From: an uncultured Gemmatimonadaceae bacterium
GTDB lineage: Bacteria; Gemmatimonadota; Gemmatimonadetes; Longimicrobiales; RSA9
Assembly (NCBI GenBank): GCA_964416095.1
Contig: CAYQCY010000003.1
Span: forward strand, 27,877-91,876
DNA length: 64,000 nucleotides
Direction of reading: 5' to 3'
Shown here: positions 4,385-54,039 of the stretch, piece after piece
Numbering within the stretch: position 1 is the stretch's first letter
Layout of the letters: each line of letters begins with the position of its first letter
The notes under the pieces: generated by a model
Told to the model about the DNA's origin: nothing
Database searches by the model: none
The model's input: the letters and a program-made list of their open reading frames with translations, nothing else
Position numbers and translations under genes: made by a program

Positions 4385-5005
4385 TCAGATGATGCCCCGG
4401 TGACCCAGGGACAGCGCGGCCTTGTTGATGACGGCCCGGAGCTCCTTCGGCTTGAAGGGCTTCGCGATGAAGTCGAACGCCCCCTTCACCAGCGCTTCCC
4501 GGGCCACCTCGACGGTGGCGTAGCCCGTGATGAGGATCACGCGGGAGTTCGGGCAACTGGACATGACGTGCTCCAGGACCTGGATGCCGTCCACATCCTC
4601 CATGCGCAGGTCGGTCACGATGATGTCGAACTCCTGTTCCTCCAGGCGGGCCAGCGCTTCGGTCGGGTCGACGTACGACTCGACCTCGAACCCGTGCTTC
4701 GTCAACGTCGGCGAGAGCCGCTTGCCGACGATGGGCTCGTCGTCGATGATCATGACCCGGAGCCTCTCTTCACCGGATGGTTCCTGCTTTTCGGGTACTT
4801 CCGGCGCTGTCTCCTCCATCGCGGTCCCCCTTTCACCTTCGGCCCATTCGTCCCGCACGATCATGATCTTGTCGAGGGCGAGCTTGCGCACGGGATCGAT
4901 GCCCGTCTCCTGGAAGCCCATGTCCGCCTCGCCCGCCTCGGCGAAGGAGATCCGGACCATCCAGTCGTCGATCTTCGTCGTCGGGCGGTCCTTCTTGTCT
5001 CCCAT
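4385..5005 (-). CDS. stand-alone response-regulator receiver with an unrecognised ~90-aa N-terminal extension
   Basis: Receiver motifs: RVMIIDDEP, IIVTDLRMEDVDG, ITGYA, KPF. I chose the start at ATG 5005 because AGGAGG lies 7 nt upstream; the track start at 5083 is unlikely. Confidence 0.85.
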   Translation of the reverse strand: MGDKKDRPTTKIDDWMVRISFAEAGEADMGFQETGIDPVRKLALDKIMIVRDEWAEGERGTAMEETAPEVPEKQEPSGEERLRVMIIDDEPIVGKRLSPTLTKHGFEVESYVDPTEALARLEEQEFDIIVTDLRMEDVDGIQVLEHVMSSCPNSRVILITGYATVEVAREALVKGAFDFIAKPFKPKELRAVINKAALSLGHRGII

Positions 5006-5090: not shown

Positions 5091-6200
5091 TCATGCGATT
5101 TCGGGCGCCTCCGTTACTTTCTGCAGGGTGACATGGACCTGTCGCCGCTGGCGGTAGGCCCTGGTCACGTTGTACAGGATGATCAGCGCGCCGGAGATCC
5201 CGGCCAGGAAGAGCACCGCCTTGCTGGCCAGGTTGAAGTACCGGTCCCAGCCCGGGTCCATGTCGAGCCAGCCCAGCTGGCGCAGGTAGATCGGGACCGC
5301 GATCGCGCGGCTGATGACACACAGCAGAATGATCACGGCGGTGACCAGCCGGATCATGACTTCCTTCACGACCTTCACGCCGTAGGCCCCGACGAAGATA
5401 CCGAGGAGCGACCCGAGGTAGAGGAGCAGGACGAGCCGCAGGTCGACGAGGCCCTGGAACGCGTAGTTGACGGCACCCCAGGCCCCCATGAACTGGGCCA
5501 GGTACAGCTCGGAGCCGGCCGCAACCGCCGTGGGCACGCCGAAGAGGTAGATCATGGCCGGAACGCCGATGAAGCCGCCCACGCCGATGGTGCCGGCCAG
5601 GTACCCCGTAGCCAGGCCCGCCGCCAGGATGATCCAGAGCGATACGCGCACGTCCGCGACCTTCAGGTGCACGTACGGCGGCAGGTACAGCTTCGACAGG
5701 TAGTCCGCGATCTTGCGCGACGGCACCTGCTCCTCCGCTTCCTCGTCCCTCCGCCTGAGCGCGTCCCGCAACATGAAGATGGCCACCACGGAGAGGATCA
5801 GGATGAAGACGGCGCTCACGTAGAGGTCCGACGCGCCCGAGCCCGTACCGCCACCGTGACCGTCTCCCTCGACCCGGAAGAGGGCGCTGTTGATCCAGAC
5901 GGCCAGATTGATGCCGAGGAACGCCGTGATCACCATGAACAGGGACAGACGCTTGTCCACATTGCCCAGCTCGCCGTGCTTGCGGCTCCCCACCATGGCC
6001 TTGCCGAACTTGTGCGTGATGTTGCTGGCCACGGCCACCACGCCCGGAACGCCCAGGTTCATCATCCCGGGCGTCATGAAGAAGGCGCCACCGCTGCCGA
6101 TGAAGCCGCTGAGCGTGCCGCCGATGAGCCCGAGCAGCACCACCTGCAGCGCCGTCGCGAGGTCGAGATCGATGTACTGGCCGAAGAGCAGAGCCTCCAT
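5091..6200 (-). CDS. TauE/SafE (DUF81) family anion/sulfite-exporter-like membrane protein
   Basis: Polytopic membrane protein with the duplicated motif GxIGGxLSGFIGSGGAF / GTIGVGGFIGVP. Start moved to ATG 6200, downstream of AAGGAG. Confidence 0.8.
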   Translation of the reverse strand: MEALLFGQYIDLDLATALQVVLLGLIGGTLSGFIGSGGAFFMTPGMMNLGVPGVVAVASNITHKFGKAMVGSRKHGELGNVDKRLSLFMVITAFLGINLAVWINSALFRVEGDGHGGGTGSGASDLYVSAVFILILSVVAIFMLRDALRRRDEEAEEQVPSRKIADYLSKLYLPPYVHLKVADVRVSLWIILAAGLATGYLAGTIGVGGFIGVPAMIYLFGVPTAVAAGSELYLAQFMGAWGAVNYAFQGLVDLRLVLLLYLGSLLGIFVGAYGVKVVKEVMIRLVTAVIILLCVISRAIAVPIYLRQLGWLDMDPGWDRYFNLASKAVLFLAGISGALIILYNVTRAYRQRRQVHVTLQKVTEAPEIA

Positions 6201-6224: not shown

Positions 6225-7775
6225 CTATTCCATCTTGATGAGCTTCAGCAAGCCGCTCGTGACCCTGCCGTACGAGAACGCCACGACGGGGATGAACAGG
6301 AAGACGGCCACCGAGACCAGGATCTTGGCCGCCCAGCCGACCTCGCCGCCGCCGGCCGCCTCCGCGTACCACCCCGTGTGGGCCAGGAAGGCGAGGATCG
6401 CCTCCTGGTTCGTGAACACCAGGAGGTACAGCACCACCACCACTGCCAGGAAGGCCGCGACCCGCACGGCGTCCCTGGGCCCGAACAGGTACTGGCTGCC
6501 CAGCTCGTCCGACGCGACGATGGGCACCCGCAGACGGTCGCCCAGGTACGCCCGCAGGTCCCGCATGGCCCGGATCCGTGCGGCATGCCCCTTCGACAGG
6601 AACAGGTCCCCGATCACCACGAGGGTGTACGGAAACGAGCGGTCCACCGTCTCCACCAACCGCTGCTGCGTACCACACACCGTCTTCCCACCTCCCGACC
6701 GGCCCAGCCGCGCCAGCTCGTCCAGTGCGTCCCTCAACCCGCCATCGTCGTGGTCCACCTCGACGGTGTCCGGCTCGATGCCACCGTTGTACTCTTCGCT
6801 CCCCGGCCCTCCGCCCATCGGCGTCGCCGGCTCCGCCACCCGCGGCTCCCCCCGCTCGTCACACCCGGACGGGGCCAGCCGCAGCAGCTCCACGGCGGCG
6901 TTCCACTTCGTGGCGATCTCCACCACGTTGTTGAAGGCTTCCGACCCCACCTCGAACCGCTCCTGGATCCACAGCAGGTTCGAGGTCGCCATCGTCACGC
7001 TCAGCTCGTCGATGCCCTCCACCGTATCCAGGACGTCCGGGATGTGACCCGCCACAGACGCGTCCGGCGGCAGGTAGCTCACGGTGACCAGCCCGGAATC
7101 GGCCCGCACCTTCAGACCTGCGGCGTACGTACGGTCGTCCCGTGCCAGGGCGAGGCGCGCTCGGGAGCCCAGCAGCAGATCCTCCATCCGCTGACGCGAT
7201 GACGGCGTCATCTGGAAGTCGGGCAGCTGCGCCGTCTGCACCATCACCGCCGCCGCGTTCTCCACCCCTATCTGCTGGAGGTTCACCGTCACATCGTAGT
7301 TCAGCGCCTCCCCCACCCCCACGCCGTACATGTGCCGGACCCAGCGCTCCCGGTCCTCGTCCACCTCCTTCACGTACCGCAGCGCCTTCTCCCGGTCCAC
7401 ACCCAGCTCCGACATGATGAACTGGACCCGATGCTCCAGGTCCCACACCACCCGCACCCGCAGGACATGCGACACCCCGGGCACCAGCATGTGACCCGTC
7501 CGCCCATGGTAGACCAGGTTGTGGTCCACCGCCCGCTCGCACAGGTAGTTCCGCGCGAACGCCAGGTAATGATCCCGCTCCCGCGCCAGCTTCTCGCTGA
7601 ACGCGTGCGGCTTGATCATCGCCATCTCGAGCTTGCCGACCTGGATGCCCTCGCGCGTCGCCGCCTCGATCAGGTCTTCCCGACCCAGACATTCGTACCC
7701 CATCTTCTCGGCCAACCGCTCCGCCAGCTCCTGACCGCGGCCGTAGCTGCCTCTCGAAACACAGATGATCTGCAT
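6225..7775 (-). CDS. Cytidylate_kin2-like (PF13189-type) N-domain fused to a BON-like/unknown middle region and a C-terminal 2-TM anchor
   Basis: N-terminus MQIICVSRGSYGRGQELAERLAEKMGY resembles the ITISRxxGSGG start of cytidylate-kinase-like family proteins. C-terminal hydrophobic helices: VAAFLAVVVVLYLLVF and ILVSVAVFLFIPVVAF. Confidence 0.65.
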   Translation of the reverse strand: MQIICVSRGSYGRGQELAERLAEKMGYECLGREDLIEAATREGIQVGKLEMAMIKPHAFSEKLARERDHYLAFARNYLCERAVDHNLVYHGRTGHMLVPGVSHVLRVRVVWDLEHRVQFIMSELGVDREKALRYVKEVDEDRERWVRHMYGVGVGEALNYDVTVNLQQIGVENAAAVMVQTAQLPDFQMTPSSRQRMEDLLLGSRARLALARDDRTYAAGLKVRADSGLVTVSYLPPDASVAGHIPDVLDTVEGIDELSVTMATSNLLWIQERFEVGSEAFNNVVEIATKWNAAVELLRLAPSGCDERGEPRVAEPATPMGGGPGSEEYNGGIEPDTVEVDHDDGGLRDALDELARLGRSGGGKTVCGTQQRLVETVDRSFPYTLVVIGDLFLSKGHAARIRAMRDLRAYLGDRLRVPIVASDELGSQYLFGPRDAVRVAAFLAVVVVLYLLVFTNQEAILAFLAHTGWYAEAAGGGEVGWAAKILVSVAVFLFIPVVAFSYGRVTSGLLKLIKME

Positions 7776-8329: not shown

Positions 8330-8647
8330 TCAGCCGCCGAAGCTGAGCCGGGTCATGTTCTCGAGGAAGACCCGGTCCCCGGGTGAGAGGACCTCCGGCC
8401 CGCTGGCCTCCACGACGTTCAGGAGCCGCTCCACTTCTTCCCGGTTGATGGGATGCAGGCTGTCCAGGTCAACCTGGCGCCAGCGCTCCCGGTCCCGCTG
8501 GTCCCGGACGAGCTGCGACGAGTAGTGGGAGTTCGGCTTCTCCACGCGCCTGCTGGCCGCGACCCGCTTCGCGTGCCAGCGCGGGTACCATACGCGCGCC
8601 ACGATGGCGGCGAGGAGGGCGATAGGTGCCGCGATCCAGAGGTCCAT
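8330..8647 (-). CDS. hypothetical single-TM protein (105 aa)
   Basis: C-terminal, sensible-looking part of track ORF 8330..9478, starting at MDLWIAAPIALLAAIVARVW. GC3-rich. The upstream part of that track ORF is antisense to the ABC-F gene. Confidence 0.6.
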   Translation of the reverse strand: MDLWIAAPIALLAAIVARVWYPRWHAKRVAASRRVEKPNSHYSSQLVRDQRDRERWRQVDLDSLHPINREEVERLLNVVEASGPEVLSPGDRVFLENMTRLSFGG

Positions 8648-8741
8648 GATTATTGATACACCGGTACCGGTCGACGTGCTCCATGTAGAGCGCCCACACC
8701 TTCTCTGACGGAATCCCGGCCCCGAAAGTTGCAGGGTGACT

Positions 8742-8802
8742 GCAGGCGGGAGGCGGAAGGTGGGAGGTGGGAGGCGGAAGGAACGGCGATACGGCGAGGG
8801 GA
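8742..8802 (+). repeat. 61-bp direct repeat R1: (GGRAGGN)5 heptads followed by ACGGCGATACGGCGAGGGGA
   Basis: 57/61 identical to 10771-10831. Ends 14 nt before the ABC-F stop codon. Confidence 0.9.
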
Positions 8803-8816
8803 ACTGGGAGGCCGGG

Positions 8817-10763
8817 TCAGAGGGGGTCGGCGAGGGCTTGTTCGACGCGTTCCCATTCTTCCATGAGGCGGGCGACCTCGGCCTCCTTGCGAGCGCGCTC
8901 CTCGTCCAACTTCGCGACCTGGTCGGGCGCGGCCCGCTGGTAGTAGCCGGGCCGGGAGAAGGTCCGGTCGATCTCGGCGAGCCGGGCCTCGGCGGCCTGG
9001 ATGCGGGCCATGAGCTCTTCGGCCCGGTCCCGGAGCCGTTGGCGCCGCGTCTCCGCGTCGGTGGTCGCGGGCCGGGCCGGGCCATCGTCGTCCCGTCTCC
9101 CTTTTCTGCGGGCCGTCTTCTCGCGCCGCTTCTCCCGCTGCGCCGCCACGACCCGGTCCACATCGAGGTGGTCGTCGCCGCAGGCGTGGATGTACTCGTC
9201 GTAGCTGCCGGGGAAATCGGTGATGCCGGTGGGGGCGATCTCCACGACCCGGGTGGCGAGCTCGCCGACGAACCAGCGGTCGTGTGAGACGAAGACGAGG
9301 GTGCCGTCGTAGGCCCTGAGCCCGTCGACGAGGGCCTCGATGGACTCCAGGTCCAGGTGGTTGGTGGGCTCGTCCAGGACCAGGACGTTGGGCTGCCGGA
9401 GGATGAGGCTGCCGAAGACCAGCCGCGTCGCTTCGCCGCCGGACAGGGTGGCGAGGGGTTTGGCGGCGTCGTCGTCATCGAAGAGCATGAGGCCCATGTG
9501 GGCCCGGACGAAGCGGCGGTCCCGGCCGGGGCAGAAATCCCGGATCCACTCTTCGGCCGACTGATCCGAGGTGGCGAGCCGCTCGTGGTGGTCCTGGACG
9601 AAGTATCCCGGGTGGGTCTCGTGGCCCCATGTCACCTGGCCGGCGTCGGGCTCCAGCTCACCCATGACGATCTCCAGGAGCGTGGACTTGCCGATCCCGT
9701 TGGGCCCGATGATGGCCAGCCGATCCCCGCGCCGGACCCGGAGGTCGACGCCGTGGAGGACCTCGTTGCCGTCGAAGGCCTTCCTCACGCCTTCGAGGGT
9801 GAGCACCTGCTTGCCGCTGGCCCGGCGCTGCTCGAACCGGAAGGTCGGGTAGCGGCGGGAGCTACCGGGCAGCTCCATTAGCTCCTCCGCCTTCTTCTCG
9901 ATGAGGCGGAGCTTGCTCTGGGCCTGGCGCGCCTTCGTGGCCTTGGCCCGGAACCGGTCCACGAACTGCCGGTGGTGGGCGATCTCCTTCTCCCGCTGGG
10001 CGATCTCCTTCTCCCGCCGCTCCCGCTCCGCGCGCTTCGCCTCCTGGAAGTCCGTGTAGTTGCCGTGGTAGAGCAGGACGGTCTCGTAGTCCACGTCCAG
10101 GATCCTGGTGGCCACGTTGTCCAGGAACCGGTGGTCGTGGGAGATGACCACGGCCGGCCCCGCGAAGTCCTGCAGGAAGGTCTCCAGCCAGCGGATGGAC
10201 AGGATGTCCAGGTGGTTGGTGGGCTCGTCCAGGAGCAGGACGTCGGGCGCGCCGGCCAGCACCTGGGCGAGCAGCACCCGCAGGCGGAATCCGCCGGAGA
10301 GGGTGGACAGGCGATCGTGGTGCACCTCTCCCGGTATGCCGAGTCCCTCCAGGATGCGGGCCGCCCGGGCTTCGGCGGCGTAGCCGTCGTGGCGCTGCAC
10401 CGTCTCCTCCAGCTCGGAGAAGCGGTGGGCGTCGAACGCCTCTTCCGGACCGGCCAGCATGGCTTCCTTCGCCTGCATGGCGTCCCACAGGACGGGGTCG
10501 CCCATGAGCGCCACGCCCAGGATCTCCCGGTCCTCGTACAGGAACTGCTCCTGGCGCAGCACGCCGAGGCTCGCCGAGCCCGGGATGGAGACGGTGCCCT
10601 CGGTGGGTGGCAGGTCGCCGGCCAGAATGTTGAGCAGCGTCGTCTTCCCCGAGCCGTTGGCCCCCACCAGCCCGTAGCGCTCCCCGGGGTTGAGCTGGAA
10701 GGAGACGTCGGCGAACAGGGTCCGGTCGCCGTACTGCATCCCCACCTCGGAAACCGAGATCAT
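8817..10763 (-). CDS. ABC-F family ATPase (two ABC domains, coiled-coil C-terminal extension)
   Basis: Two Walker A sites (GANGSGKTT, GPNGIGKST) and two signatures (LSGGFR, LSGGE). No TM domain. The inter-domain linker and Arg/Glu-rich tail are typical of ABC-F translation factors. Confidence 0.9.
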   Translation of the reverse strand: MISVSEVGMQYGDRTLFADVSFQLNPGERYGLVGANGSGKTTLLNILAGDLPPTEGTVSIPGSASLGVLRQEQFLYEDREILGVALMGDPVLWDAMQAKEAMLAGPEEAFDAHRFSELEETVQRHDGYAAEARAARILEGLGIPGEVHHDRLSTLSGGFRLRVLLAQVLAGAPDVLLLDEPTNHLDILSIRWLETFLQDFAGPAVVISHDHRFLDNVATRILDVDYETVLLYHGNYTDFQEAKRAERERREKEIAQREKEIAHHRQFVDRFRAKATKARQAQSKLRLIEKKAEELMELPGSSRRYPTFRFEQRRASGKQVLTLEGVRKAFDGNEVLHGVDLRVRRGDRLAIIGPNGIGKSTLLEIVMGELEPDAGQVTWGHETHPGYFVQDHHERLATSDQSAEEWIRDFCPGRDRRFVRAHMGLMLFDDDDAAKPLATLSGGEATRLVFGSLILRQPNVLVLDEPTNHLDLESIEALVDGLRAYDGTLVFVSHDRWFVGELATRVVEIAPTGITDFPGSYDEYIHACGDDHLDVDRVVAAQREKRREKTARRKGRRDDDGPARPATTDAETRRQRLRDRAEELMARIQAAEARLAEIDRTFSRPGYYQRAAPDQVAKLDEERARKEAEVARLMEEWERVEQALADPL

Positions 10764-46768: not shown

Positions 46769-48706
46769 TTACGAAACCTTCCCCGGCGGCCTGAACCCGA
46801 CGCGGTCCGCCTCGTCCAGCGCCACCTCCACGACGGCGCCGTCCACACCGTCCACGTCCGCGAAGACCTGGAGCGCGAAGGGCACCTTGCCGAAGGGCGC
46901 GCTGACCTGGATCCCCTGCACATCGGACCGGACCCGCTGGAAGATCTCCCGGGCGATGAGGATGCCCTCCTCCAGGGCATGCTCTTTCCCCCTGTCGTTG
47001 GCCTTGCGCATGCGGGCGAGGATGGGGTCCGGCACGTTGATGCCCGGGACCTCGTTCGCCAGGAACTCGGCGTTGCGGAGGGAGACCAGTGGCCAGATCC
47101 CCGCAATGATCGGCACCCAGATGTCACGCTCTTTCAGCGCCTCGATGACCGCCAGGAGCTGGTCGCTGTCGAAGACCGGCTGCGTGATGGCGTACTCGGC
47201 CCCGGCCTCCGCCTTCCAGTAGAACCGGTGCAGCTCGTGGTCCAGGTCCACGGCGCCCGGGTTCAGCCCGACGCCGATGGTGAACGACGTGGGCTCGCCG
47301 GTGGGGTTGCCGCCCGGGTCGAGGCCGTGGTTCAGCCGGTTCACCAGGTTCGTGAGCCCGATGCTGTCGATGTCGAAGACGGCGGTGGCGTCGGGGTAGG
47401 GCCCCATCTTGGGCGGATCGCCCGTGATCAGGAGGAGGTTGCGCAGCCCGAGAGCGTGTGCGCCCAGGAGGTCCGACAGCATGCCCAGCAGGTTTCGGTC
47501 CCGGCAGGTGTAGTGCACGACGGCCTCGATGCCGACCATCTGCTCCACCAGCGCCGACGTGGCCAGCACGCCCATCCGCATCTGGGCCCGGGGCCCGTCC
47601 GGGACGTTCACCGCGTCCACGCCCGCCTCCTTCAACATGCGGACGCCCGCCAGCATCGACGCGGGATCCACGCCCTTGGGCGGTACGATCTCCACGCTGG
47701 TGACCAGCTCGCCGGCATCCAGCTTCCGCCCGAGCCGCGACCGCTCGGTCAGCGGCACGGGCTCCCGCTCCGCCTCCTCCGACCGCACCGCCTCCACCCG
47801 GATCTTCGTCCGGGTCCGGCCCGGCGAGAGCGCCGCCACCGCGTCGGCCATGCGCCGGATGTGCTCCGGCGTCGTGCCGCAGCAACCACCCACGAACTTG
47901 GCGCCGGCCTTGATCAGCCGCTCGGCGTATTTCGCCATGTACTCCGGCGAGGCCATGTACATCTTCCGCCCGTGCACCTCCCGGGGCAGCCCCGCGTTGG
48001 GCTGGGCCGAGAGCTTCTTCGTCGTGCCCCGGGCCAGGTGCACGAGCGCGTCCAGGATCCCCGCCGGGCCCACGGAGCAGTTCAGCCCCACCACATCCGC
48101 GCCCCACTCGTCCAGCCGGCTGGCGCACAGCTCCGGCGCGCTCCCGTACGCCGTCGTGCCGTCCTCCCGTATGGTCATCTGCGCCACGATGGGCAGGTCG
48201 CTCGCTTCCTGCACCGCCCGGATCGCCTGATGGATCTCCTCCAGGTCCGAGAAGGTCTCCAGCACGAACAGGTCCACGCCGCCGTCCAGCAGGCCTTCGA
48301 CCTGGGTCCGGAAGAACGCCCGCGCCTCCTCGTGCGACGTGGGGCCGTACGGCTCGAGCCGGATCCCCAGCGGCCCCACCGACCCGGCCACCAGCGCCCG
48401 CTCCCCGGCGGCATGCTTCGCGATGAGCGCCGCCTGGGCGTTGATCTGGAAGGTCTCGTCGGACAGGCTGTGCTCGTGCAGCTTGACCGGGTTCGCGCCG
48501 AAGCTGTTCGTCTCGATGATCTCGGCGCCCGCGTTCACGTACGCGCGGTGAATCTGACCCACGAGCTCCGGGTCCTTCAGGTTGATCTCGTCATAGGACC
48601 GGTTGATGAAGACGCCCCGGGCGTAGAGCATCGTCCCCATGCCGCCGTCGAACATGACGGGGCGGTCGGACGTGAGGAGCTCGTGGAAGCGGTCCCTGTT
48701 GCTCAC
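46769..48706 (-). CDS. bifunctional homocysteine S-methyltransferase / methylenetetrahydrofolate reductase (YitJ-like)
   Basis: N-terminal Hcy-binding domain (GGMGTMLY, LNCSVGP, GGCCGTTPEHI) and C-terminal MTHFR-like domain. GTG start inside the stop region of the upstream 4HB gene (GTGA). Confidence 0.85.
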   Translation of the reverse strand: MSNRDRFHELLTSDRPVMFDGGMGTMLYARGVFINRSYDEINLKDPELVGQIHRAYVNAGAEIIETNSFGANPVKLHEHSLSDETFQINAQAALIAKHAAGERALVAGSVGPLGIRLEPYGPTSHEEARAFFRTQVEGLLDGGVDLFVLETFSDLEEIHQAIRAVQEASDLPIVAQMTIREDGTTAYGSAPELCASRLDEWGADVVGLNCSVGPAGILDALVHLARGTTKKLSAQPNAGLPREVHGRKMYMASPEYMAKYAERLIKAGAKFVGGCCGTTPEHIRRMADAVAALSPGRTRTKIRVEAVRSEEAEREPVPLTERSRLGRKLDAGELVTSVEIVPPKGVDPASMLAGVRMLKEAGVDAVNVPDGPRAQMRMGVLATSALVEQMVGIEAVVHYTCRDRNLLGMLSDLLGAHALGLRNLLLITGDPPKMGPYPDATAVFDIDSIGLTNLVNRLNHGLDPGGNPTGEPTSFTIGVGLNPGAVDLDHELHRFYWKAEAGAEYAITQPVFDSDQLLAVIEALKERDIWVPIIAGIWPLVSLRNAEFLANEVPGINVPDPILARMRKANDRGKEHALEEGILIAREIFQRVRSDVQGIQVSAPFGKVPFALQVFADVDGVDGAVVEVALDEADRVGFRPPGKVS

Positions 48707-49146
48707 GGTTTGCCGTCCTGGCGGGATGGCGGGCGAGGCCCGTTCGAATTCGAGTTCGAGTTCGATTTCGCACGGCGGGCGCGACGTGTGTGGCGTTGCT
48801 TCATCTTCGTCAACATGGCCACGATCCGGGCGAGGAGCTCTTCCTTTGCTTCATACTCCGCACCGTTGATCACTTTCATCGTGAGCAGCGTATCCAGGAG
48901 TGCTGCACATTCGGTGGCACTGCCACTGGCAACCCGGCAGTGGTAACCTGCCTCCGTGGGTGTCTTGTTCCCTGCACTCTCCGCCACGTTCAGCTTGATC
49001 GAGAGCGCCGCCCGCAGGAACTGATCGGTCACGAAATAGCGGTTCCGCGGGATCCGCTCCGCCACCTGCAACGACCAGATCCAGAACTCCATGGCAGCCT
49101 GATACACGTCCGGACGCTTGAACCCGAACCGCGTTGCCGTTGCCAT
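48703..49146 (-). CDS. four-helix-bundle protein (23S rRNA IVS / Avd family), divergent, with a Ser-Asn repeat tail
   Basis: FLRAALSIKLNVAESAGNKT...ASGSATECAALLDTL fits the family pattern. GGAGG lies 5 nt before ATG 49146. Tail: ...RRAKSNSNSNSNGPRPPSRQDGKP. Confidence 0.7.
   Translation of the reverse strand: MATATRFGFKRPDVYQAAMEFWIWSLQVAERIPRNRYFVTDQFLRAALSIKLNVAESAGNKTPTEAGYHCRVASGSATECAALLDTLLTMKVINGAEYEAKEELLARIVAMLTKMKQRHTRRARRAKSNSNSNSNGPRPPSRQDGKP
48742..48770. repeat. hexanucleotide array (NTTCGA) of about 5 units
   Basis: GTTCGA ATTCGA GTTCGA GTTCGA TTTCG. It encodes the SNSNSNSN tail of the 4HB protein. Confidence 0.9.
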
Positions 49147-49312
49147 GCCCGCCTCCGCGTGTGCGAGGATCGATCCTCGCAAACACGCCGCCCGGCAGCG
49201 GGCGCAGGAACGGCCAGCCGGGACATGTGGTCCGCTCGCGACGGACGTTGTCCCTGGGACCAAGCCACGCCCCGAAGGTTGCTCCCTGCCGCAAACCTGA
49301 CGTACCCCTCGT

Positions 49313-49330
49313 AATCGAATTCGAAATCGT
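49313..49330. repeat. hexanucleotide array (AWTCGA) of 3 units
   Basis: AATCGA ATTCGA AATCGT, directly abutting the metH stop codon (49331-49333). Confidence 0.8.
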
Positions 49331-52300
49331 TCAGTCCGCGCTGAAGTACCTTGCCTCCGGATGATGCACCACCAGCGCCGCCGTGCTCAGCTCCGGCACC
49401 AGCGCGCCCGCCTCCGTCAATTCCATCCCCAGCTCTTCCTCGGCCGGCAGCAGTCGGAACACCTGCCGGTGCTGACGGTGGTCCGGGCACGCGCCGTAGC
49501 CCCAGGAGTAGCGGAGCCCGCGATCGTCGTCGATGCCCAGGTCGCGACGCACGACCCGGTGGACGTACTCGGCTGCCGCCTCCGCCAGACGCACGCCGAA
49601 CCCGTGCAGGTAGTAGCCTTCGCCGTACTCGCCGCCCTTCATCATTCCCTCGGACTCTTCGAGCAGCTCGTCGCCCACCGTGACGACCTGGAAGCCGGCC
49701 ACATCCTGCGGCCGGTCCTCGTCGTCGACGGGCCGGAAGTAATCGGCGAGGCAGAGACGGTCCCGGTCCGGCTGCCGCGGGAACTCGAAGCGCGCCACCT
49801 CCTTGGCCCGCTCGTCGGGATCGTAGACGACGAGGGCGTCGCCCTCCCTCGCGGCGGGGAACAGCCCGTAGGCGCCACGCACCCGCACTTTCCCCGCGGC
49901 CAGCGTCTCCCGCTGGTACCGCTCGAAGCGCGGCCCGAACTCCTCCCGCACCAGCCGCTCCCACTCCTCGCCCTTCGCATTCTTCGCACCCCAGTGCAGG
50001 CGGTAGAGCGTGTTCAGGTCGATGAGGGGATAGAGCTCCGCCAGCGGGAGTCGGTCCAGCACCTTCACGCCCGTGAAGGCCGGCTCGGGCACATCGATGT
50101 CGTTGGACGGTCCGCCGCGCCCCCCGGGCCGCGGCGAGGCGGCGGCCCTGGCCTGGAGCGCGGCCCGCTTCGCCGTGTCCTCCCGGATCTCGTCGTGCCG
50201 GCGCTGGACGAAGCCCGACCGGTCGTCGCCCACCAGCGACTCCACGACGTGCAGCCCCTCGAATGCGTCCTTGCAGTACCAGACGCCGGGCCCGTACAGC
50301 TCGGTCTTCGCCTCGTCCACGAAGGCGGCCGACCGGACGAACGACGGGTTGATGGCCGCGCCGCCGCACATCACGGGGAACGCGAGGCCGCGGCTGTGCA
50401 GCTCCTGGACGGCGGCCGGCATCTGCTTCGAGGTGGAGACCAGGAGCGCCGAGAGCCCGATGACGTCGGCTCCCACCTCCTCGGCCTTCGCGATGATGTC
50501 GTTCACCGGCACCTGCTTGCCCAGGTCGTGGACCGTGTAGCCGTTGTTGTCCAGGATCGTGCCGACCAGGTTCTTGCCGATGTCGTGCACGTCGCCGAAC
50601 ACCGTGGCCAGCACGACGGTGCCCTTCGACTCGCCCTCGACTCTCTCCAGGTACTGCTCCATGCGGGCGACGGCCCGCTTCATCGCCTCCGCCGACTGGA
50701 GCACGAACGGCAGGATCAGCTCCCCGGCCCCGAACTTGTCGCCCACGACCTTCATGGCGGGGAGGAGAACCGAGTTCAGAAGGTCCACCCCGGCCTCGTG
50801 CGTCTCGGCGGTCGGCACGATCGAATTCGAACTCGAATTCGAATTCGAATTCGAGCCGGCCTGGCCGAGGCGCCCGTGGATCGCCGCGTCCACGAACTCC
50901 TCGATCCCCTCCTTCTTCCTGTGCAGGATCTTCCAGTGGATCGCCTCATCGGGGGTCATCTCGGCGGTGGGGTCGGCGGCCTCCTCCGTTTCCGCGGCGT
51001 GCTCCTCGTAGTAGTCGATAAAGCGTTCCAGCGCGTCGTCGCGCCGGGCGAAGATCAGGTCGTCGGCCAGGACGCGGCGCTCCTCGTCGATCTCGGCGTA
51101 CGGCGTGATGTGGGCCGGGTTCACGATGGCCATGTCCAGCCCGGTCTCCACGCAGTGGTGCAGGAACACCGAGTTGAGCACGGCCCGGGCGTGGGGCTCG
51201 AGCCCGAACGAGACGTTGGACACGCCCAGACTGGTGAAGACGCCCGGCAGCTCGGCCTTGATGCGGCGAATCCCCTCGATCGTCTCCACCGCCGAGTGGC
51301 GGAACTCCTCCTCGCCGGTCGCCAGCGTGAACGTCAGGTCGTCGAAGATCAGGTCCTGGGGCCGGAGCCCGTAGTCGCCGGTCACGATGTCCTGGATGCG
51401 ACGCGCGATCTCCAGCTTGCGGTCCGCCGTCTTGGCCATGCCGTCCTCGTCGATGGTCAGCGCGATGACGGCGGCGCCGTGCTCCACGGCCAGCGGCACG
51501 ACCTCGTCGATCCGCTGCCGGCCGTTCTCCAGGTTGATGGAGTTGATCACCGCGCGGCCGGGATACTGCTCCAGCGCGGCCTTCACCACGTCGGCCTCCG
51601 TGGTGTCGATGACGAGGGGCGTCTCCACGGACTGGGCCAGGAGCTTGACCAGCCGGCGCATCCGCTCCGCTTCGTCCTCCCGCTCCGTCAGCGCGACGCA
51701 GACGTCCAGCAGGTGGGCGCCGCCCTCCACCTGCCCGCGGCCGATCTCCACCACGCCCTCGTAGTCGTCGTCCAGGAGCAGTCGCTTCACCGCACGGGAG
51801 CCCTGCGTGTTGACCCGCTCACCCAGCAGCGTCGGCGCCGGTTCCTGGGCCAGGTCGAACGCCGTCATGGCGCTGGCGACCCGGGGCACGGACGATCCGT
51901 TCCGGGCGGCCGGCACCGCCCCGGACAGGCGGTCGACGACGAGGCGGAGATGGTCCGGCGTCGTGCCGCAGCAGCCGCCCACCACGTTCACGCCGAACCG
52001 CGTGACGAACTCCTCGTGGGCGTCGGCCAGCTCCTCCGGGGTGAGCGGGTATACGGCCCGGCCGCCCTCGTTGAAGGGGATGCCGGCGTTCGGGATCACG
52101 CTGACCGGGAGCCGCGTGTTCTCGGTGAGCCACCGTACCGGCTGGCGCATGTGCTCCGGGCCCGTGGAGCAGTTCAGGCCGAGCACGTCCACGCGCAGCG
52201 CCTGTTCCAGCACGACGCCGGCCGCCTCGATGTCCGTCCCCAGCAGCATTCGACCGGAGGTGTCCAGCGTCACCTGCGCCTGGATCGGCACCGTGATGCC

Positions 52301-52867
52301 CGTCTCGCCGAACGCATGCCGCAGCCCGGCCACCGCCGCCTTGACCTCCAGCATGTCCTGGCTCGTCTCGATGAGCAGGACGTCGACGCCGCCCCCGATG
52401 AGGCCCGCCGCCTGCTCACGGAAGACGTCCGCCAACTCCTCGTACGTCATGGCGCCCAGCGCCGGGTCGTTCGTGCTGGGCAGGTACCCGCTCGGGCCCA
52501 CGCTGCCCGCCACGAACCGCGGCCGATCCGGGGTCCCGAACTCGTCCGCGACCCGCCGGGCCAGAGCCGCCGCCGCACGGTTCAGCTCCAGCGCCTCGGC
52601 CTGGAGCCCGTACTCCTCCAGCGTCAGGCGGTTCGCCCGGAAGGTGTCCGTCTCGATGACGTCCACGCCCACGTCCAGGAACGAGCGGTGGATGTCCTCG
52701 ATGACGTCCGGCCGCGACAGCACCAGGTGGTCGTTGCACCCCTCGAGCTCTTGACCGCCGAAATCCTCCGTCGTCAGCCCCCGGGCCTGGATGCTCGTGC
52801 CCATGGCGCCGTCGTAGACGAGGACGCGCTCCGCCAGGGCATCCAGGTACCCGCCTTTATGCTCCAT
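49331..52867 (-). CDS. metH: cobalamin-dependent methionine synthase
   Basis: Start MEHKGGYLDAL (ATG 52867). Hcy domain (LGLNCSTGP, GGCCGTTPDH), pterin-binding domain, B12 domain (GDVHDIGKNLV is the DxHxxG motif; SALLVST) and AdoMet-activation domain (RYSWGYGACPD). The track ORF extends 118 spurious codons upstream. Confidence 0.93.
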   Translation of the reverse strand: MEHKGGYLDALAERVLVYDGAMGTSIQARGLTTEDFGGQELEGCNDHLVLSRPDVIEDIHRSFLDVGVDVIETDTFRANRLTLEEYGLQAEALELNRAAAALARRVADEFGTPDRPRFVAGSVGPSGYLPSTNDPALGAMTYEELADVFREQAAGLIGGGVDVLLIETSQDMLEVKAAVAGLRHAFGETGITVPIQAQVTLDTSGRMLLGTDIEAAGVVLEQALRVDVLGLNCSTGPEHMRQPVRWLTENTRLPVSVIPNAGIPFNEGGRAVYPLTPEELADAHEEFVTRFGVNVVGGCCGTTPDHLRLVVDRLSGAVPAARNGSSVPRVASAMTAFDLAQEPAPTLLGERVNTQGSRAVKRLLLDDDYEGVVEIGRGQVEGGAHLLDVCVALTEREDEAERMRRLVKLLAQSVETPLVIDTTEADVVKAALEQYPGRAVINSINLENGRQRIDEVVPLAVEHGAAVIALTIDEDGMAKTADRKLEIARRIQDIVTGDYGLRPQDLIFDDLTFTLATGEEEFRHSAVETIEGIRRIKAELPGVFTSLGVSNVSFGLEPHARAVLNSVFLHHCVETGLDMAIVNPAHITPYAEIDEERRVLADDLIFARRDDALERFIDYYEEHAAETEEAADPTAEMTPDEAIHWKILHRKKEGIEEFVDAAIHGRLGQAGSNSNSNSSSNSIVPTAETHEAGVDLLNSVLLPAMKVVGDKFGAGELILPFVLQSAEAMKRAVARMEQYLERVEGESKGTVVLATVFGDVHDIGKNLVGTILDNNGYTVHDLGKQVPVNDIIAKAEEVGADVIGLSALLVSTSKQMPAAVQELHSRGLAFPVMCGGAAINPSFVRSAAFVDEAKTELYGPGVWYCKDAFEGLHVVESLVGDDRSGFVQRRHDEIREDTAKRAALQARAAASPRPGGRGGPSNDIDVPEPAFTGVKVLDRLPLAELYPLIDLNTLYRLHWGAKNAKGEEWERLVREEFGPRFERYQRETLAAGKVRVRGAYGLFPAAREGDALVVYDPDERAKEVARFEFPRQPDRDRLCLADYFRPVDDEDRPQDVAGFQVVTVGDELLEESEGMMKGGEYGEGYYLHGFGVRLAEAAAEYVHRVVRRDLGIDDDRGLRYSWGYGACPDHRQHRQVFRLLPAEEELGMELTEAGALVPELSTAALVVHHPEARYFSAD
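50819..50854. repeat. hexanucleotide array (AWTCGA) of 6 units inside metH
   Basis: GATCGA ATTCGA ACTCGA ATTCGA ATTCGA ATTCGA. In frame, it encodes SNSNSNSSSNS in a loop of the B12 cap region. Confidence 0.9.
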
Positions 52868-53103
52868 GCCTGCCTTTCGTTTTCGTCCCGACCACGAAAA
52901 AAGCCCCACGCCGATGGTCTCGGTGCGGGGCGATCCCTCCATATTCGCGTTCTGTCGTCCCGGCACTTTAGACCTTTGGTTCGACAGGTCCGGGACGGAA
53001 CGCATCCCTCCCTCCTGTCCGGCGGTGCCAAGCGGCCTCAAATGCATCCGCCGTTGCTGCTCCTCTGTCCGCTCAATGTCATACCCGCCCTCGGCCGCGT
53101 CAA
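52868..53103 (-). promoter_or_regulatory. metH 5' leader: candidate promoter (TTGACG-17-GACATT) plus ~175-nt structured RNA ending in an intrinsic terminator; possible riboswitch or attenuator of unassigned class
   Basis: Candidate -35 at 53103-53098 and -10 at 53080-53075. There are several mutually exclusive helices, for example GUCCCGG pairing either with an upstream GGGA or a downstream CCGGGAC. The terminator lies 30 nt before the ATG. Confidence 0.5.
52897..52931 (-). terminator. intrinsic terminator inside the metH leader
   Basis: Minus-strand GCCCCGCACCG-agaccau-CGGCGUGGGGC followed by UUUUUU. Confidence 0.7.
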
Positions 53104-53202
53104 GACAGGGAAGAGGTGGACCTTCCCCATCCTTTCGATTCCTCGCTGATGCAGGCGGGCAATTCGGGAAGCCGTCGGGCTCCTGCCCGCGGCCCGCCGA
53201 GG
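53098..53202 (+). repeat. intergenic repeat family, partial copy C
   Basis: gtggaccttccccatcctttcgattcctcgctgatgcaggcgggcaattcgggaagccgtcgggctcc... aligns with A 14931-15017. Weaker similarity may continue to about 53260. Confidence 0.7.
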
Positions 53203-53299
53203 CTCCGCTCGTGGGCCTCACCGGGCACGGATTCTGCTACGAAAGCCGGGCGATGGAGCGGTGTCGTTCCGCTCCGCGCCTCGCATCGCGGAGGGACCC

Positions 53300-53506
53300 A
53301 TGACCGCCGGGAAGATGCGCCTCGACGCCCAGCGGGCGCTGCTCGAGCTGGAGCCCGGCCTGGCTCCCTGCGGGCGGTCCCAGGCCGATGGCGTGCCCTG
53401 CCCCGAGCTGGGCACCGACTGCGCCGACTGCCCGGAGGGTCGCGACGGTCTCTTCACGCTCATGCAGGAGAGCTACAAGCTGCGGATCAAGCGGCTCTGC
53501 ATTTGA
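53300..53506 (+). CDS. hypothetical Cys-rich small protein (68 aa)
   Basis: GGAGGG lies 4 nt before ATG 53300. GC3-rich. Contains C-x10-C-x7-C-x2-C. No family recognised. Confidence 0.5.
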   Translation: MTAGKMRLDAQRALLELEPGLAPCGRSQADGVPCPELGTDCADCPEGRDGLFTLMQESYKLRIKRLCI

Positions 53507-53508
53507 GG

Positions 53509-53536
53509 CATCTCGTCCCCCCGGGGGGACGAGATG
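53509..53536. terminator. perfect 12-bp GC hairpin
   Basis: CATCTCGTCCCC-CCGG-GGGGACGAGATG, immediately after the 53300-53506 ORF. Confidence 0.55.
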
Positions 53537-53565
53537 ACCCGATCACGTGGGCGTGACCACGAAAC

Positions 53566-53591
53566 GAGCCCGCCGGAATTCCGGCGGGCTC
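53566..53591. terminator. perfect 11-bp GC hairpin
   Basis: GAGCCCGCCGG-AATT-CCGGCGGGCTC, downstream of the pilin gene on the minus strand. Confidence 0.55.
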
Positions 53592-53619
53592 GCGGGCTAT
53601 CATTCCTCCACGACGGCCG

Positions 53620-54039
53620 CTACGGAGTGAAACTGCACGAGATCACGCCCGGAACCGTGGCTTCCCCCACCGTGGCTCCGCCGTCTCCCACGTAGACGTT
53701 GCACTGCTCGTCGGGGATCGCCATGTGCGTTGCCGTGGCTGCCCAGCCGCCTGTGTGGTCGCCGAGGACGATGGTCACGCCCTGGCTGGTGAGAAAGTTC
53801 AGGTCGGGGTCCACCCCGGACCAGTCCAGGGTCCCGGCCGTCTTGTAAGCGAGGGCGGAGCCGTGGTAGTAGATCTCCTGCTGGTTCTGCAGGTGCTTCA
53901 GGTCGGCGCGCATCGCTGCGTAGAAGCCGCGCTCCCGGGCACGGCTGAGCGTCGGGATGGCCAGCGCCGCCAGGACGGACAGCACGACCACGACGACGAG
54001 CAGCTCGATCATCGTGAAGCCTGGATGCACGTTGCGCAT
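53620..54039 (-). CDS. pilA: type IV pilin (PilA-like)
   Basis: MRNVHPG|FTMIELLVVVVVLSVLAALAIP carries the class III signal with the G/F cleavage site and Glu5. GAGGAA SD lies upstream of ATG 54039. C-terminal Cys pair. Confidence 0.9.
   Translation of the reverse strand: MRNVHPGFTMIELLVVVVVLSVLAALAIPTLSRARERGFYAAMRADLKHLQNQQEIYYHGSALAYKTAGTLDWSGVDPDLNFLTSQGVTIVLGDHTGGWAATATHMAIPDEQCNVYVGDGGATVGEATVPGVISCSFTP

Follow-up and report, generated by a model that had tools for sequence, protein, structure and literature searches.

For the short tandemly repeated repetitive (STRR) sequences of cyanobacteria, known since 1990, and for the heptamer arrays of Xanthomonas, known since 2015, there is no explanation. 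Four-helix-bundle (4HB) proteins of the 23S rRNA intervening sequence (IVS) family present another puzzle; they are annotated in very many bacterial genomes, often between genes of unrelated operons, and their function is unknown. We analysed a stretch of 64,000 nucleotides (hereafter the window) from an uncultured Gemmatimonadaceae bacterium (assembly GCA_964416095.1, contig CAYQCY010000003.1, positions 27,877 to 91,876), in which a 4HB gene lies between the methionine synthase gene metH and a yitJ-like gene and is flanked by arrays of a hexamer. The findings link the two puzzles, as the 4HB gene was almost always accompanied in our sample by inverted tandem-repeat arms and located at intercistronic junctions.

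The closest described systems are as follows. The 23S rRNA IVS of Coxiella carries a PF05635 open reading frame (ORF) in its loop, has a 28-bp terminal stem that is cut by RNase III, and possesses variable-number tandem heptamers (GACAGAT) beside the stem; such elements are regarded as selfish, and the Coxiella ORF is decaying (PMC4990558). Hairpins of STRR sequences are located at intercistronic sites such as hupS-hupL in cyanobacteria (PMC2670836), and 70-75 inverted pairs of GGGAATC arrays were counted per Xanthomonas genome (PMC4692102). The function of the STRR and Xanthomonas-Nostoc heptamers (GGGAATC, GGGGAYT) is unknown (PMC2670836; PMC4692102). Repetitive extragenic palindromic (REP) elements are palindromic intergenic repeats in operons, many of which lie no more than 15 nt from a stop codon, and affect translation and mRNA stability (PMC12306157). 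Avd of diversity-generating retroelements is a homologous, PF05635-like 4HB protein (PMC10053308).

We read the arrays at 49313-49330 and 48742-48770 of the window as the inverted arms of a cassette that has the PF05635 gene as its sole gene and fills exactly the junction of metH with the operon gene after it, with a third, solo array inside metH. The probability of this reading is put at about 0.72. The three genes all lie on the minus strand, and the features are listed in the direction of transcription.

49331-52867, minus strand: metH, cobalamin-dependent methionine synthase (TIGR02082, 1075 bits), the upstream neighbour, with a stop codon (49331-49333) abutting the proposed left arm
50819-50854, minus strand: the solo array, in frame inside metH as SNSNSNSSSNS, forming a strong predicted hairpin (Tandem Repeats Finder, period 6 at 50821-50854, 5.7 copies)
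49313-49330, minus strand: the proposed left arm, three units (AATCGA ATTCGA AATCGT; sense ACGATT TCGAAT TCGATT), beginning at the first base past the metH stop codon
49147-49312, minus strand: leader from the left arm to the 4HB start, with a hairpin (49146-49197) at its end, whose 3' arm holds the GGAGG ribosome-binding site
48703-49146, minus strand: 4HB gene, 147 amino acids (PF05635, 1.1e-17; TIGR02436, 1.9e-16)
48742-48770, minus strand: the proposed right arm, about five units (sense GAAATC GAACTC GAACTC GAATTC GAAC), 35 nt before the start of the next gene (Tandem Repeats Finder, period 6, 4.8 copies)
48703-48706, minus strand: GTGA overlap of the 4HB stop codon (TGA) and the downstream start codon (GTG)
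46769-48706, minus strand: yitJ-like gene, bifunctional homocysteine S-methyltransferase/methylenetetrahydrofolate reductase (NF006396, 727.5 bits; PF02574, PF02219), the downstream neighbour

The arrays belong to a (TCGARY)n family with a palindromic unit, and no other array of this kind was present elsewhere in the 64-kb window, the GC content of which is 70.0%. The three arrays and their coordinates had been reported in a first-pass annotation made from the sequence alone, and they were reproduced here with a chance expectation of about zero in shuffled sequences. The pattern TCGANNTCGANNTCGA gave six matches in the window, confined to two arrays, and none in 100 dinucleotide-preserving shuffles. 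The looser AT-rich pattern CGAWWTCGAWWTCG, with at most one mismatch, gave eight matches, all at the three array sites, against an expectation of 0.06.

The proposed cassette would consist of the left arm, the leader with a hairpin over the ribosome-binding site, the 4HB ORF and the right arm, a layout that may be regarded as that of a 23S rRNA IVS placed in a protein-coding operon, with tandem hexamers as its termini. As in the IVSs of Leptospira, Coxiella, Brucella and Xanthomonas, a PF05635 ORF would occupy a loop that complementary termini close, along with short repeats of variable number. It differs from them in lying at an intercistronic junction of a protein-coding operon and not in a 23S rRNA helix, in having stems made of tandem hexamers, and in encoding an ORF that is preceded by a good ribosome-binding site and kept by purifying selection, unlike the decaying ORF of Coxiella. 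The arrays resemble the STRR sequences and heptamer arrays in their inverted pairs, conserved positions and a length difference of one unit, and would probably also share the lineage-specific and mostly intergenic distribution and the frequent occurrence as hairpins, but the unit in the window is 6 nt instead of 7, palindromic, and rich in AT although the GC content of the genome is 70%. STRR-like heptamers form the arms of the cyanobacterial 4HB cassettes described below, and this link between STRR sequences and 4HB genes appears to be new.

As with REP elements and bacterial interspersed mosaic elements, the arrays were often within 15 nt of a stop codon (11/30), and the left arm in the window starts at the first base past one. 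In contrast to these plain hexamers without a head, REP elements are not tandem arrays, have a GTAG/CGTC head and are tied to REP-associated tyrosine transposases. Avd is likewise a 4HB protein in a mobile nucleic-acid system, but the reverse transcriptase, template repeat and variable repeat are absent beside the window gene. The terminal inverted repeats at the exact ends of the inserts in Nostoc (see below), as well as the position of the left arm in the window, are reminiscent of transposons and of MITEs (miniature transposable elements with inverted repeats). The palindromic elements of Rickettsia, about 100-150 bp long with a consensus sequence, can lie in frame within protein genes, where they contribute a peptide to a surface region that tolerates it; the in-frame palindromic repeats are a common feature, but the Rickettsia elements are not tandem hexamers. 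No published link of 4HB genes to flanking inverted tandem-repeat arrays was found in a literature coverage that was incomplete, and the armed 4HB cassettes suggest a widespread type of insertion element that is apparently undescribed.

The palindromic unit makes any two of these arrays complementary, and thus only polarised variant units, which are not palindromic, are informative for their orientation. In the window, the left array contains GATTTC, and the right array contains GAAATC and two GAACTC units. GA[G/T]TTC units were found in the stop-side arrays of the window and of the related loci L123, L121, L124 and L225, as well as in unrelated array pairs in L109, L053 and L054. The start-side arrays in these loci had almost only the complementary GAA[C/A]TC units, with one left-type unit each in the right arrays of L053 and L054. 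As judged from these variant units, the flanking arrays can be regarded as inverted arms in the strict sense. The inverted repeat between the two arms in the window (49313-49330 with 48743-48770) is 18-20 nt long with 85-89% complementarity. The predicted fold closes the whole cassette by a long-range stem in L123, L121, L124, L126 and L128, and the inverted-repeat scores were 51 for L123, 58 for L121, 50 for L124 and 64 for L128. Duplex energies of the GC-rich flanks of 70-95 nt were too noisy for this comparison, control windows reaching -60 to -86 kcal/mol. The arrays had also been expected to form hairpins. This was true of the metH array, for which the minimum free energy (MFE) was -37.4 kcal/mol (z = -5.2), but not of the two short flanking arrays taken alone.

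Close homologues of the 4HB gene were all located between metH and the yitJ-like gene. The identities to the window protein were 79% for L123, 72-73% for L121, L124/L125 and L225, and 53-56% for L122 and L126/L127, with L128 being more distant. Arrays or inverted repeats were present at the same places in all of these loci, which amount to six relatives. L123, L121, L124/L125 and L225, with TCGARY units, have one array after the metH stop codon and another after or in the tail of the 4HB gene, and a third array precedes the yitJ ribosome-binding site in L121, L124 and L225. In L122, L126 and L127, the arms are composed of non-palindromic hexamers, with (CGTCTT)n as the left arm and (AAGACG)n as the right one, over 34 nt with 82-94% complementarity (94% in L126), and L128 has a degenerate inverted repeat of 40-47 nt. 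Two of these loci, L121 and L122, come from one metagenome-assembled genome (MAG), GCA_037380605.1, which therefore holds two versions of the junction, one with TCGARY arms and one with CGTCTT/AAGACG arms; the MAG would either be a mixed bin or carry two such operons in one genome.

The dN/dS ratio of the 4HB core against the relatives was 0.05-0.28, indicating purifying selection. The dS values between the window and L123 or L121 were 1.0-1.5, which means that the synonymous sites are saturated. The saturation indicates that the cassette is old and that the arrays persist where neutral sequence would be randomised. On these substitution rates, the 4HB gene is best taken as an old resident under purifying selection, not as a recent insertion. 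L124 and L125, obtained from different samples, showed no mismatch in 2620 bp and a single 6-nt gap, at which the left array past the metH stop codon differs by one GAGTTC unit (L124 186-247 versus L125 2261-2328). A one-unit gap in otherwise identical sequences is direct evidence of slippage, to which the first-pass annotation had considered such arrays to be prone. The cassette would thus be old in the Gemmatimonadota lineage, with the protein kept by selection and the array length changing by slippage. A segment of about 45 nt (GG..GGATTYCGGGGYGCGCGRTGTTNCCGGCGCC) recurs right after several arrays of one intergenic region (L121 4815-4870 and 5426-5480; L124 248-290, 310-360 and 908-960), where modules composed of an array and a leader seem to have been duplicated.

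The flanking arrays had been proposed to be either the ends or the target of an inserted cassette, and a comparison with a relative lacking the 4HB gene had been suggested. In such a relative, L129, the junction is empty, with neither a 4HB gene nor an array, and the metH stop codon overlaps the next start codon (ATGA). Three Nostoc plasmids (L257, L268 and L270) have an operon in common, made up of a 441-nt gene, a gene of 288 nt and a longer one. A GGAGTCA-armed cassette is inserted in the junction of the first two genes in L268 and L270, where L257 is empty (TAG GTT ATG). L257 in turn harbors a different, GGGAAAA-armed cassette in the next junction, where L268 is empty (TAA TTT ATG). The Nostoc inserts open with the left arm right past the stop codon and finish shortly before the next ATG, which the right arm reaches in L268, and the empty sites are free of arrays like that of L129. 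No recognisable target-site duplication was found at the two Nostoc junctions. The arrangement of these reciprocal sites demonstrates that the insertions were independent and that the arms arrived together with the gene. The array-free empty junctions of L129 and Nostoc favour the arrays as ends of the cassette over the arrays as its target. The former option was also supported by the inverted arms, the relatives and the loci in other phyla. The arms would accordingly belong to the inserted DNA and not to a pre-existing target, and the core of the reading, in which the two arrays form the termini of a 4HB cassette inserted here, is well supported at the level of sequence.

The survey of 4HB genes comprised 27 loci including that of the window, and each gene was scored for the best inverted repeat that its upstream flank formed with its 3' end and downstream flank. 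A score of 38 or higher was obtained for 23 of them. In the controls, 451 random placements in the same loci had a 99th percentile of 30 and a maximum of 45, and 29 annotated neighbour genes had a median score of 18, with two of them reaching 38. The loci below the threshold were the window, with its short left arm, L262 (29), L251 and L252. The arms of the 23 loci are tandem repeats with a period of 6, 7 or 8, and 15 arm types were distinguished. The units are TCGARY, CGTCTT and CGTAAG with period 6; GAAGTGA, GGAGGCA, GGGAAAA, GGGAACA, AGGTGAC, GTTAGCT/AGCTTTT, GGAGTCA, GGGTGTG and GGACGGA with period 7; and GGAGGGCA and GGAGATAA with period 8. The fifteenth type is the degenerate inverted repeat of L128, which lacks a clear period. 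Armed 4HB genes were found in Gemmatimonadota (with a Gemmatirosa plasmid among them), in Myxococcota, in many cyanobacteria, in Azospirillum and on an IMG/VR contig. As an example, the 4HB gene of L253 (Kofleriaceae), 39% identical to the window protein, lies between the genes for DUF429 and dnaJ; its left arm is (CGTAAG)n and its right arm (CTTACG)n, with 96% complementarity over 27 nt. The window 4HB protein as a query gave no match in the plasmid collection, and P0016 gave none in the phage collection, where an alignment query found one locus in viral contigs; the plasmid and phage searches needed more typical family members as queries.

The arms begin 0-15 nt past the upstream stop codon in most of the annotated loci, and the contexts include sites between cas genes, in conjugation operons and beside dnaJ. 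Armed cassettes were located between cas6 and cas4 in Anabaena sp. 90 (L259 1489-1857) and Pseudanabaena galeata (L264 1495-1854) with different heptamers, and a weakly armed 4HB gene (score 29) lies between cmr2 and cmr3 in Picosynechococcus (L262 1483-1839). The 4HB genes among cas genes were earlier read as functional partners of cas (PMC3936711). The arms of these genes suggest insertion instead, and 4HB genes in cas or metabolic operons should not be taken for functional partners of their neighbours. In the cyanobacterial cassettes, the left arm just ahead of the 4HB start is purine-rich and resembles tandem Shine-Dalgarno sequences (AGGAG, GGGAA; L257 1435-1470, L268 1439-1473, L263 1442-1474 and L258 1424-1458), and the right arm is a CUCCU-like complement located just ahead of the start of the next gene.

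The third array lies in frame in metH and reads GSNSNSNSSSNSIV. The Ser-Asn insert with the otherwise rare codon AAT, as described in the first-pass annotation, agreed with the translation and the codon count, AAT accounting for five of the 51 Asn codons in metH and the downstream gene, four of the five being inside the insert. The alignment of 120 orthologues from Gemmatimonadota (window 50780-50900) located the insert at a hypervariable site between the conserved EEFVDAAI and AGVDLLN, and demonstrated that it is lineage-specific and variable in length. The basal form of this loop has about four residues (RG-GDND), and other lineages have 10 to more than 150 low-complexity residues. Many of the inserts are dipeptide repeats (SN, TS, EA, ES, AR, GE and GN), that is, hexamer arrays of varied sequence. 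Solved MetH structures align only from just past the insert, at residue 40 of 1BMT, which places it in the N-terminal part of the cap domain. A TCGARY array was also present at the same MetH site in L121 (3242-3270) and L125 (692-717). The most plausible view of the metH array is that of a solo member of the (TCGARY)n family, probably tolerated because it adds Ser-Asn to a surface loop of the cap domain, where nearly any low-complexity insert is accepted. The earlier view of this array as an unoccupied or scarred site was not upheld, as no sign of past occupancy was seen. The palindromic unit makes the left and right arms direct repeats as well, and the loss of the loop by slippage could therefore leave a solo array.

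In the relative without the 4HB gene, L129, (GAGGCR)n arrays are abundant and translate into EA repeats; MetH has three of them and the downstream gene two (4565-4594, 6074-6104, 6635-6663, 8644-8745 and 9721-9848). A 92-nt array in this locus is followed, 11 nt on, by an inverted partner, giving a hairpin of arms only. Each genome seems to have its own preferred hexamer.

Arrays were also found in the absence of 4HB genes. No 4HB gene was detected beside an array, the relatives of the met operon aside, among the matches listed for 119 genome loci and 120 metagenome loci, as searched with phmmer and a hidden Markov model of 62 homologues. The one exception was L032, where a 4HB gene with different arms of its own is 3.4 kb from the array. 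The specific association of arrays with 4HB genes considered in the first-pass annotation was thus not found. The first scan of the collections, with four TCGARY units, was too loose; most of the at least 119 matches were GC-rich (GAGCTC)n, (GAGTTC)n and (GAACTC)n arrays from many high-GC phyla, and such arrays are therefore a more general phenomenon. The AT-rich TCGAAT-type arrays recurred within single Gemmatimonadota MAGs, at five or more loci (at least seven arrays) in one and at three or more loci (at least five arrays) in another.

Among 30 intergenic arrays, 11 had a stop codon no more than 15 nt away, where 3.3 would be expected (P ~1.5e-5), and others were 5-17 nt ahead of start codons. 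The variant units were strictly polarised; GA[G/T]TTC and GAA[C/A]TC were counted 34 and 2 times past stop codons, and 0 and 25 times ahead of start codons, respectively (Fisher 4e-15). The gene calls behind the boundary statistics were made by a heuristic based on the GC content of third codon positions, and both the boundary and the polarity counts include the orthologous met loci. GAGUUC self-pairs in RNA via G-U and GAACUC does not, which favours a role at the RNA level. In L053, L054 and L109, array pairs bracket whole intergenic regions, the interiors of which hold no 4HB remnant and are mutually non-homologous. A MITE family with a common core was rejected as an explanation of these ORF-less pairs on account of the non-homologous interiors. 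In-frame arrays in other proteins mostly read SN. An array in L186 (2167-2206) starts from a stop codon and has left-type units followed by right-type units (GAGTTC GAGTTC GAATCC GAACCC GAACTC GAACTC), as would be expected of an arms-only or collapsed element.

Several observations weigh against the arrays in the window being the inverted arms of a mobile cassette. The arm-arm score of the window itself was 26, a value reached by 7% of the control placements, and the left arm has only three units. The duplex energy of the arms was just 1.5 standard deviations better than that of shuffles, the MFE fold of the window leaves the two arms unpaired, and the complementarity is partly an automatic result of the palindromic unit. 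The sample of 4HB loci is small, biased to cyanobacterial plasmids and contains orthologous sets, and the 4HB genes of L251 and L252 are arm-less and adjoin fragments of DDE_Tnp_1_4 transposases. In related genomes of Gemmatimonadota, (TCGARY)n arrays occupy many gene boundaries and also lie within other proteins without a 4HB gene close by. (TCGAAT)n is also an ordinary microsatellite in metagenome contigs of any GC content, and the unit is hence not diagnostic. Moreover, the cassette contains no transposase, and no target-site duplication was seen.

Among the alternatives, it is quite unlikely in our estimation that the arrays are lineage-specific gene-boundary repeats similar to REP or STRR sequences, acting on mRNA by themselves as hairpins past stop codons and as unstructured leaders ahead of start codons, with the 4HB gene merely residing in a bracketed intergenic region. 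Such repeats would explain the array pairs around 4HB-free, non-homologous intergenic regions in Gemmatimonadota, the excess of arrays close to stop codons, the strict polarity of the variant units and the 119 and 120 loci lacking a 4HB gene near the array. They would also be in line with the intercistronic STRR hairpins and the inverted heptamer pairs of Xanthomonas, both known without a link to 4HB genes (PMC2670836; PMC4692102). They do not explain why 23 of 27 4HB genes, from several phyla and with unrelated surroundings, are bracketed by arms when 27 of 29 neighbour genes are not. Nor do they account for arms and gene turning up jointly at junctions that, if empty, hold no array. The two explanations could be merged if the 4HB cassettes were the ORF-carrying members of a larger family of repeat-armed elements. 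Possible, although rather unlikely, is the same architecture acting at the DNA level, in which the arms are terminal inverted repeats or cruciform/hairpin sites for a recombinase or transposase provided in trans and the RNA stem is a by-product. The reciprocal Nostoc junctions, with two cassettes inserted precisely between stop and start codons, and the arms beginning 0-15 nt past the upstream stop codon in most annotated loci are consistent with this, as are the two loci with DDE_Tnp_1_4 fragments beside the 4HB gene, the tyrosine recombinase/integrase genes adjoining the 4HB genes of L267 and L269, and an integrase gene about 1.3 kb upstream in L266. On the other side, no target-site duplication is visible at the Nostoc junctions, no recombinase gene was found in or beside the window cassette, and the polarity with respect to transcription, together with the G-U self-pairing of the after-stop units, is more easily understood as an RNA-level constraint.

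The 4HB protein might also be a dedicated accessory of the met operon, acting for example on MetH or cobalamin, with the hexamers kept as Ser-Asn linkers or tails. This was judged very improbable, even though seven lineages keep the order metH-4HB-yitJ, purifying selection acts on the protein and in-frame arrays usually read SN, because the same family with arms occurs between cas genes, in conjugation operons and beside dnaJ, L129 does without the gene, the Ser-Asn tail is absent in L121, L124 and L225, and the left arm and many other arrays are non-coding. The chance that the arrays are artefacts of assembly or chimera formation is practically negligible. The window and most of its relatives are indeed metagenome assemblies, but an independent assembler gave the identical sequence; the Logan assembly of SRR7048218 (L001), the sample of which may be the same as that of the window, was 100% identical to window 47334-50524 including both flanking arrays. 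In addition, orthologous array positions were found in JGI, ENA, NCBI and Logan contigs, and the reading frame is kept across the metH array. Restriction-site decoys were also considered for GAATTC, TCGA and GAAGAC and rejected, as the arm units elsewhere are not restriction-like palindromes; for footprints of repeated transposon excision, no evidence was found.

Returning to the inverted-arm cassette, the two arms may pair in the operon transcript, or each may fold back, to give double-stranded RNA that could be cut by RNase III or alter mRNA stability and translational coupling at the junction. The cassette may once have been mobile through a mechanism using the arms, and the arms may equally have a part in mobility at the level of DNA. 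A broader generalisation is offered tentatively and at less than even odds, namely that PF05635 genes with inverted arms of tandem repeats constitute widespread, unrecognised mobile cassettes that insert precisely at stop-start junctions and in rRNA helices. The pentameric 4HB protein would bind the arms as RNA or DNA, solo arrays like that of metH would represent scars or members that lack the ORF, and the 23S rRNA IVSs, the STRR and Xanthomonas arrays and the 4HB genes scattered over cas, conjugation and metabolic operons would be united. If this is true, RNase III should cut at the arms, the 4HB protein should bind the repeats, and the cassette should be mobile.

The 4HB genes of L251 (2501-3776) and L252 (2501-3278), on contigs of one sample, have the DDE_Tnp_1_4 fragments about 78 nt past the gene, a neighbourhood that may represent a different way for 4HB genes to travel.

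With regard to the genes in the window, the start of metH was placed at MEHKGG, while the public annotation (P0063, 1224 amino acids) uses an earlier start. The best matches of MetH were proteins of Gemmatimonadota/Longimicrobiales with 72-80% identity. The 4HB protein passed the family cut-offs for both PF05635 (64.6 bits versus 33.8) and TIGR02436 (60.2 bits versus 24). Its conserved core corresponds to approximately the first 118 codons, and the tail KSNSNSNSNGPRPPSRQDGKP results from read-through of the right arm. The right array is read as KSNSNSNSN in the tail of the ORF, consistent with the Ser-Asn tail that had been described for the 48.7-kb array. The tail showed no conservation as protein among the relatives, and it is most likely an incidental read-through because the ORF ends before the array in L121, L124 and L225. 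The GTGA overlap between the 4HB gene and the next gene has comparable counterparts (ATGA) in L122 and L126, and suggests translational coupling.

The leader hairpin has 26-nt arms with 77% complementarity and no spacer, and L123 has a comparable hairpin in the same place with a different stem sequence, which may reflect covariation. No sigma-70-like promoter was found in a scan of 48500-51000, and terminator-like sites were no more frequent there than in shuffles. Rfam searches at gathering thresholds detected no family, including rRNA, in the window and four related loci, and a relaxed scan of 48600-53700 gave chance-level matches only. A perfect GC-rich palindrome, GAGCCCGCCGGAATTCCGGCGGGCTC, with GAATTC at its centre and no T-run after it, is located at 53565-53590, upstream of the metH leader. 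The tetranucleotide TCGA occurs 421 times in the whole window against 176 expected from base composition, probably owing to preferred codon pairs (NTC-GAN), and this excess may explain why TCGA-centred hexamer arrays are the common type in high-GC genomes.

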